DNA of 50,587 nt, taken from NCBI GenBank assembly GCA_024256285.1, contig JACGUG010000006.1:1-50587 (forward strand), written 5' to 3'. Positions 45,677 to 46,726 of this stretch are shown here, piece after piece. Within the stretch, counting starts at the first letter, position 1. Each line of letters opens with the position of its first letter. The DNA comes from an archaeon (GTDB taxonomy: Archaea; Thermoproteota; Nitrososphaeria; Nitrososphaerales; JACAEJ01). A program made the translations under genes and the position numbers. Under the pieces are notes generated by a model. It was not told the origin of the DNA. It was given only the letters and a program-made list of their open reading frames with translations, and did no database searches.

Positions 45677-45913
45677 TTATGGCACTTCTACAACGATCAT
45701 CGTGAGAGTAGACCTTACTTTATCTAGGCGTCGGATCTTCCAAGTTACCGTCTCCTTTACATTCTCCATAGAGTCGGCTTCTATCTTGGCTATGATGTCA
45801 TAGACGCCATAGACTATATAAACCTCTTTTACATTCTCAATCTTCTTAAGCTCTCCCACTAATTCTTCCTCTGCTCCAAGGTCGGCATTTATCAACACGA
45901 ACGCCAAAGGCAT
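45677..45913 (-). CDS. Stand-alone Lrp/AsnC ligand-binding domain protein
   Basis: MPLAFVLINADLGAEEE...VYGVYDIIAK...IRRLDKVRSTLTMIV. ATG at 45913. Confidence 0.92.
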   Translation of the reverse strand: MPLAFVLINADLGAEEELVGELKKIENVKEVYIVYGVYDIIAKIEADSMENVKETVTWKIRRLDKVRSTLTMIVVEVP

Positions 45914-45985
45914 GGTGCATCTCATCACGTTCTAATTAATAAATTTATCATTAAATGGTTCAAGTTATCAGTACCAACAGAAGCA

Positions 45986-46064
45986 GGTTCTGTCAAGATA
46001 CAGGCTCATAATTCTTGGTGTAAAGTTTACAACATGACGGATGAGCCTACAACTTGACAGAACC
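45986..46064. mobile_element. 79-bp MITE with terminal inverted repeats and an 8-bp target-site duplication (IS6-like ends)
   Basis: TIR GGTTCTGTCAAG / CTTGACAGAACC is perfect over 12 bp and matches 21/24 when extended to AGGCTCAT/ATGAGCCT. Flanked by the direct repeat CAGAAGCA at 45978-45985 and 46065-46072. Confidence 0.88.
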
Positions 46065-46138
46065 CAGAAGCACAATATTTAAATAAGATAATTGACTATT
46101 TTAACAACCTTGCTTTAACCTCCCATTTAACTTAATTT

Positions 46139-46726
46139 GTGTGGAGGCTCAATGAAATGATAGGAGAACCTGTGGCAGAAGAGGAGCGAGCTAAAGAAAC
46201 CGAACCAACCGATGAATCGATCGATGCATGCAAAGCAGTGAGTAAGCTAGATGAACTGAGAAAGGCTTTGGAAGAAGAGAGGAGTAAGACTGAAGATTAT
46301 CTGAACCGTTTAAGGTATCTTCAGGCCGATTTTGACAATTATAAGAAGAGGGTGGATAGGGATATGCTCGAATTAGTTAAGTATGGAAACGAGCGATTGA
46401 TAGTTAAATTGTTAGATACCGTCGACGATCTTGAGAGGGCTGTTATATCTTGTAGGGAAGCAAAGGACAAAGAGGCATTGTTAAAGGGGGTTGAAATCGT
46501 CTTAAAGGAGCTGAAGGAGACTCTTAGAAAAGAAGGGTTAGAAGAGATAGATGCTGTTGGAGATACCTTCGACCCAAATTTACATGACGCTGTAGATAAG
46601 ATCGAGACCAATGACTACCCTACCAATACGATCGTAGAAGAGATCAGAAAAGGTTATCTTTTAAATGGAAAGTTAATAAGACCGAGTATGGTCAAAGTTG
46701 CTCTTAATCCACTTAATAAGGAGTGA
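46139..46726 (+). CDS. grpE: Nucleotide exchange factor GrpE
   Basis: [25 protein letters not shown] and [17 protein letters not shown] motifs. Confidence 0.97.

Follow-up and report, generated by a model that had tools for sequence, protein, structure and literature searches.

A 79-bp insertion upstream of archaeal grpE resembles two fused ends of an IS6-like transposon family found near TATA-like boxes

Between a gene for an AsnC-type domain and the divergent grpE-dnaK-dnaJ genes of a Nitrososphaerales archaeon lies a short inverted repeat flanked by direct repeats. What is this sequence, how did it arise, and why does it lie so close to a putative promoter? The window analysed here is a stretch of 50,587 nucleotides (contig JACGUG010000006.1, assembly GCA_024256285.1; genome G000). 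The original prediction, made from these letters alone, was a very short IS6-type MITE, recently inserted and placed so as to affect the neighbouring genes.

Anatomy and insertion history of the 79-bp element

The 79-bp element was confirmed at 45986–46064, between two exact 8-bp copies of a target-site duplication (TSD), CAGAAGCA. The features of the locus are as follows.

45677–45928, minus strand: stand-alone Lrp/AsnC ligand-binding-domain gene, likely start ATG at 45913
45936–45943, minus strand: TATA-like box TTTATTAA, 43 bp away from the element and presumably serving the divergent AsnC-domain gene
45978–45985, plus strand: left TSD copy CAGAAGCA, a single copy in the empty alleles (identical in G002, 7/8 in G001)
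45986–46028, plus strand: left transposon end, about 43 bp, with the GGTTC tip, the first site and the start of the second site
46019–46031, no strand: central dyad TGTAAA-G-TTTACA, in which the inner (second) site of one end meets that of the other head to head
46022–46064, minus strand: right transposon end of 43 bp, on the side of the grpE TATA-like box
46065–46072, plus strand: right TSD copy CAGAAGCA, exact
46078–46085, plus strand: TATA-like box TTTAAATA of grpE-dnaK-dnaJ (putative promoter), at offset 14–21 outward from the element end
46139–46726, plus strand: grpE, likely start ATG at 46157, first gene of grpE-dnaK-dnaJ

Both ends begin with GGTTCTGTCAAG (GG start, G at position 7, A at position 10). 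The right end is identical at 39 of 43 positions to the transposon end at G000:C84:28803, and the left end, which fits the family end profile, at 34 of 43. As the match of the right end runs through position 43, and the second site of relatives lies at end position 34, the central dyad corresponds to two second sites joined; the two ends overlap by 7 nt, AAAGTTT, and the dyad is likely a deletion junction. The element had been described as having 24-bp imperfect terminal inverted repeats (TIRs) and a 31-bp interior with its own dyad. The first 24 bp indeed match at 21 positions and the dyad is present, but the inverted repeat really extends over 39 bp (31/39), and with 1 nt between its arms it leaves no separate interior. 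The supposed interior is probably the two ends themselves, fused by internal deletion. The predicted long hairpin was confirmed (−36.7 kcal/mol as RNA, z = −8.1, equalled in 0 of 200 shuffles), and it follows from the inverted ends.

An empty site was found in both of the two same-genus genomes, G001 and G002, each with one copy of the TSD 8-mer. G001 is close to G000 (AsnC-domain gene, 227 of 237 bases matching; grpE, 505 of 545), and contigs of sequencing runs X7 and X8, of the sister type, carry the empty allele of G001 type. Together with the 8-bp duplication, these empty sites show that the 79-bp element is an insertion. Hence, the recent non-autonomous insertion that had been proposed, to be checked by an empty site in relatives, is upheld by the exact TSD and both empty alleles, and the contrary case, conservation at the locus with no empty site, does not apply. 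Contigs of X3, X4, and X5 (one study, two samples) and of X1 (possibly the source) span the element with no differences, and the element is not an assembly artefact. All four spanning runs carry the 79-bp form and none a longer allele; no same-species empty allele was seen in the eight runs examined of 20 listed, whose contigs drop rare variants.

A multi-copy MITE family was not borne out. BLAST and profile scans found one copy of the 79-bp element in G000, a count that allows for repeats collapsing in a 118-contig assembly. The element resembles a MITE in being short, in having TIRs, a TSD, and an empty-site allele, and in lacking an ORF, but dispersed copies with different TSDs were not found in G000. 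Judged by this single copy, mobility of the element itself does not appear to be supported.

The TATA-like box TTTAAATA, 5 bp past the right TSD, was present as predicted. It is identical in the empty alleles of G001 and G002 and thus pre-dates the insertion. The box TTTATTAA on the other side, with 7 of 8 columns invariant across the three congeners, presumably serves the AsnC-domain gene. This gene, formerly read as lrp, encodes an AsnC/Lrp ligand-binding domain (PF01037, residues 12–81 of 83) and matched no other Pfam family. dnaK and dnaJ were identified from their translations rather than by profile scan. Measured between conserved blocks and without the element, the three alleles have spacers of 24, 28, and 48 nt between the two promoters. 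Since the duplication restores the 13 bp before the TATA-like box, the core promoter is unchanged. An effect on heat-shock operon or lrp expression, as had been suggested, is therefore unsupported: neither the box nor the 13 bp preceding it is altered, and the spacer varies anyway. Such an effect is possible, and the element is probably a near-neutral passenger.

Three TTTAAC repeats lie between the TATA-like box and grpE (46098–46133 of the window). The repeats are kept in G001 and partly in G002, and they are a possible regulator site. In another genus of the same family (G007:C4, G008:C21, and G009:C2), lrp-like and grpE matches lie 4.3–4.8 kb apart, so that the close divergent arrangement is not conserved there, if the lrp-like match is not a paralogue. 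A sigma-70 promoter scan gave one match against 0.9 expected; that model is not applicable to archaea.

Relatives in the genome and in other archaea

The genome-wide search for further copies revealed a longer partner at G000:C84:27369–28803 (L001:5370–6804). This 1,435-bp element has its own exact 8-bp TSD TTTTATTT, ends matching those of the 79-bp element, and no transposase. Its cargo is an N6/N4 DNA methylase fused to a Mrr-like domain, with an in-frame stop TGA. Of its insertion site, only the right flank was found in G001 and G002. At locus L075, an intact 457-aa gene with this methylase-Mrr make-up lies inward of a family end. Older related ends without a TSD are present in G000 at C52:37922–38367, C22:3120–3616, C115:5493, C118:8470 and 8563, and C66:16229; the C22 element encloses a gene of about 100 aa.

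The predicted partner transposase was not found in G000: PF13610 and a protein search gave no matches, and a profile search found only the IS256-like enzyme of C116, in an assembly that is 95% complete in 118 contigs and from which the gene could have been left unassembled. A possible C-terminal transposase relic of 33 residues (C66:16261–16359; weak, E = 0.15) lies inside a family end. The C116 enzyme (G000:C116:1266–2372, L005) is an open 369-aa zinc-finger DDE transposase with CxxH and its own distinct 23-bp ends; IS256 is its best family, below all full-length NCBIfam cut-offs, and the IS6 model also matches. An IS256/ISH6 partner was rejected, as this enzyme, the sole PF00872 match in G000, has different ends. 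PF06782 gave no matches in G000, and none in the controls.

Family ends are about 45 bp long and carry two tandem sites, one after the GGTTC tip and the second from position 34. This two-site pattern was found in 94 stretches of other public genomes, whose titles are mostly Bathyarchaeia, Methanoperedens, Nitrososphaerales, and Thermoplasmata, a few being bacterial; further matches came from metagenomes (one, with a narrower pattern) and viral contigs (one). The latter contig holds a complete 2,584-bp family element with a transposase and an exact 8-bp TSD (L195:463–3046), a possible route of spread between hosts. From 80 loci with long flanks (L070–L148 and L163), 26 distinct adjacent end pairs were tested. 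Thirteen had an exact 8-bp TSD, one a 9-bp TSD, one a 7/8 match, and 11 none; no TSD of 4–7, 10, or 11 bp was seen, and crossed flanks, used as the control, gave an 8-bp match in 1 of 650. Twelve of the 13 exact-TSD pairs, 402–1,637 bp long, enclosed no full transposase. Among the 36 frames enclosed by all 26 pairs, 11 matched Pfam, including SET, two TnpB-like proteins, HNH, Fic, a methylase, and a helicase. Transposase-bearing elements with a TSD (L126, L164, L166, L167, L175, and L195) are 2.2–3.2 kb long and carry extra DNA.

TnpB/Cas12f-like genes (PF07282) are the main content of L090:3001–4338 and L097:969–2278, between inverted family ends with exact 8-bp TSDs. They score 79 and 120 bits on NF040570 (cut-off 100), and L132 looks similar. 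TnpB with DDE transposases and inverted ends has been reported, naming IS630; no IS6-type case was noticed in the portion of that text available to us (PMC10691335).

Other ends-only elements also occur. Three diverged elements of 71–72 bp lie at separate loci of G336 (C2, C4, and C5; L192–L194), one of them with an exact TSD, and one of 62 bp lies in G137:C47 (L189), with a 7/8 TSD; all carry GGTTCTGT tips. A short-element pattern run on 401 genomes gave seven loci in five genomes, including G000 (control, four genomes). The matches in G165 and G379 look like chance, having no TSD and dissimilar arms beyond the tips. An exact junction pattern matched four times in the 401 genomes (control, once); the spacer is 8 bp in two, and the other two, with 16 and 20 bp, are likely chance.

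The cognate transposase, about 370–390 aa, consists of a SWIM-like CxC/CxH motif, a C4 zinc ribbon, and then an IS240-type DDE core. Within the order, 29 of 61 genomes gave a match to it, weak and partial matches counted. All four cognate proteins scanned exceeded the PF13610 cut-off (47–64 bits versus 27). The NCBIfam IS6 model NF033587 was the best family for all five enzymes, yet at 109–123 bits, below its cut-off of 125; IS256 and ISH6 models, where matched, gave 19–34 bits. The assignment of the ends to IS6 thus stands in part. GG tips, G7, the 8-bp TSD, and the IS240-type DDE of the relatives' enzyme agree with it; the lack of G10 and the sub-threshold IS6 score do not. The element shares the GGTTCTGT start with the bacterial IS6/IS26 consensus GGTTCTGTTGCAAA, but at position 10 of that 14-bp TIR consensus it has A instead of G. 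It is IS6-like, yet not a strict IS6/IS26 member in the sense of PMC6807381. In the sections of the IS6 literature available, IS6/IS26 ends measure 14–20 bp, transposases 213–254 aa, and elements 700–890 bp, and a review lists one passenger-carrying member (ISDsp3), whereas this family has ends of about 45 bp with two tandem sites, a longer enzyme with SWIM and C4 zinc motifs, and common cargo. As far as those texts extend, A10 occurs in clade III and G10 is lacking in the archaeal and long groups (PMC6807381), and archaeal and long IS6 members may be separate families (PMC7986276, PMC6807381).

Among the 15 plasmid matches listed, the nearest named group was ISCpe7 (26% identity over 70% of the query, E = 5e-23). 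The long zinc-finger 'IS6' elements of Clostridia (ISCpe7 group; clade h or VII) share the N-terminal CxxC zinc finger and a longer TIR without G10, but the present family differs in an extra SWIM-like domain in front, archaeal hosts, and complementary GG tips; tips in the Clostridia group are described as rarely complementary in the part of PMC6807381 consulted. The IS6-family MITEs MITEBth2 and MITEHarch3 (227 and 336 bp in the available sections of PMC7986276 and PMC6807381) likewise have both ends, no ORF, and a need for transposase in trans, whereas the present element, at 79 bp, is nothing but ends and occurs once in its assembly. According to the portion of PMC6563490 available, passenger-carrying composite transposons were undetected in archaea as of 2019.

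Mobile insertion cassettes, of which MIC231 is one, and tIS are transposase-less units with IS ends and a cargo gene, as is the C84 partner. They belong to a different transposase family and a different domain of life.

Position of family ends relative to TATA-like boxes

From 126 distinct ends, six abutting another end were dropped and 120 kept. The pattern TTTAWAWA with one mismatch, fixed beforehand, started at offsets 14, 15, and 16 in seven, five, and five of the 120 ends, against 0–2 at every other offset; it also peaks in reverse orientation. A looser TATA core, chosen after viewing this first set, lay at offsets 14–17 in 33 of 120 ends, versus 3–8 in seven control windows and a maximum of 16 in 1000 shuffles. 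Its counts at offsets 14–18 were 6, 19, 11, 5, and 5, with 0–4 at each later offset. In 21 TSD-bearing elements (at most one TSD mismatch), the core was on one side in 17, on both in none, and on neither in four, the control windows giving 1–4. In a second set, which shares some ends with these 21 elements and includes one orthologous pair, the loose core was found in 10 of 26 versus 0–3, a value reached in 0 of 2000 shuffles. The TTTAAATA box upstream of grpE starts at offset 14 from the 79-bp element, within the preferred range of the family. Thus, the position of the element beside a promoter is accounted for by the insertion of family members at a fixed offset from TATA-like boxes. In G000, both C52 flanks, C22:3616, and C115 passed the test at offsets 14–17; neither side of the C84 element shows the loose core. 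Whether a gene follows on the TATA side was uninformative (10/17 versus 8/17), and the polarity of the ends showed a trend only (7/13 versus 7/32, p = 0.07).

Tail-to-head neighbours were exactly 8 bp apart in six of seven cases. In L167 and L175, the 8 bp between the elements match the TSD of the neighbour, as repeated insertion at one site would produce; a circle-junction reading of the spacers was set aside, since target reuse explains this identity. Abutment at 8 bp was seen at L118, L125, L137, L163, L167, L175/L186, and L184; in the five abutting cases with a transposase, the abutting end is the one downstream of the transposase gene.

Five of 46 scanned genes outside family ends, 22 of the 46 having been hand-picked from 53, encode two Cpn60, Cpn10, Hsp20, and an M48 protease (flanks of L138, L142, L143, L113, and L101). 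We take the M48 protease to be HtpX-like. A RadA-like protein, AhpC, and two ribosomal proteins are also encoded outside family ends. A family bias to strong or stress promoters is suggested.

Origin and placement of the element

We propose that the 79-bp element consists of the transposase-less fused ends of an archaeal IS6-like family, and that it lies 13 bp upstream of an older TATA-like box as the transposase likely homes to the upstream edge of the core promoter (probability about 0.7). Internal deletion through AAAGTTT, within the second binding sites, would have cut a longer element down to its ends, which we infer to be its simplest origin. A 370–390-aa SWIM/zinc-ribbon/HTH/DDE transposase, since lost or unassembled, would have acted in trans. 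Targeting may proceed through TBP/TFB bound at the promoter, a tethering that the one-sided TATA signal favours. The genome of this archaeal host has one TBP gene and several TFB genes. As the duplication would rebuild the 13 bp before the TATA box, the promoter would survive and the insertion would be near neutral, and the rebuilt site would stay open to repeated insertion, giving stacks of elements 8 bp apart. Homing to promoters would likely leave genes intact.

Whether the element ever moved as a 79-bp unit is a separate matter. A longer member could have inserted at this site and lost its interior later, a reading we rate as slightly less probable than its negation. The single copy in G000 agrees with it, as do the 7-nt overlap, which suits a one-step deletion, and the finding that the 79-bp sequence is overlapped in run X1 by no locus other than this one and the C84 element. 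It is weakened by the other ends-only elements of 62–72 bp (three in G336 and one in G137) and by the presence of the 79-bp form, with no longer allele, in all four spanning runs. Such an in-place remnant is compatible with TATA targeting and would change only the label of MITE family. The promoter association, in turn, might come from the transposase reading DNA itself: a bendable A+T tract located a set distance from the cut would be recognised without a host factor, and promoters would be hit because they contain tracts of this kind. We regard this as unlikely. The signal is indeed a sequence motif that peaks in both orientations, but target preference is usually symmetric where the transposase acts as a symmetric dimer, so that a tract on one side in 17 elements and on both in none counts against it.

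Still less probable is random insertion filtered by selection, by which the survivors spare genes and core promoters. Every site examined is a survivor in a natural genome, and the position is harmless to the core promoter; yet such a filter predicts a cut-off with a broad tail, whereas the counts peak at offsets 14–18 and neighbouring elements are stacked at exactly 8 bp. We likewise consider it very improbable, marginally more so than the filter, that the element is a domesticated regulatory hairpin, a small RNA or operator tuning grpE-dnaK-dnaJ or the AsnC-domain gene. The fold is very stable, it sits between two divergent TATA-like boxes, and it is unchanged in the samples of two studies. 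Nevertheless, it is missing from both congeners, the fold follows from the inverted ends, and the spacer length varies anyway. An Rfam search of the element returned five matches, all far below the gathering threshold (best E 0.15).

To return to promoter homing, a bolder form of the proposal, which we hold tentatively and at somewhat less than even odds, is that an undescribed archaeal DDE family, docking on TBP-TFB through its SWIM/zinc N-terminus, inserts 13 bp upstream of TATA boxes and prefers strong stress promoters. This would be a prokaryotic equivalent of the safe-haven targeting of Ty3, stacking cargo (methylases, nucleases, and TnpB), and the 79-bp element would be a near-minimal mobile unit. 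Yeast Ty3 targets through TFIIIB/TBP, according to the part of the source available (10.1101/2021.07.27.453949). By analogy, the insertion window of the family is narrow, set at a fixed offset from a core promoter motif, and harmless to the gene. Ty3 differs: it is an LTR retrotransposon found at Pol III genes, and its TBP contact has been solved, whereas the present family is a DNA transposon at protein-coding genes whose TBP contact is hypothetical. The IS6 descriptions in the available sections of PMC7986276 and PMC6807381 mention no TATA-box targeting, and the literature searched, mostly open-access texts without supplements and without ISfinder, contained no description of the family or of TATA-directed transposition in archaea.

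What makes the 79-bp element a clean case is that its empty alleles show the TATA-like box to have come first, and that the insertion occurred at the family's preferred offset. If the proposal is true, the element would define the cis requirements as a tip, a first site, and half of a second site, and an ends-only unit of 79 bp would be a ready minimal donor for assays and archaeal gene delivery. If basal factors guide the transposase, this would be promoter-directed transposition in archaea, and would account for cargo genes accumulating at archaeal promoters that stay intact.
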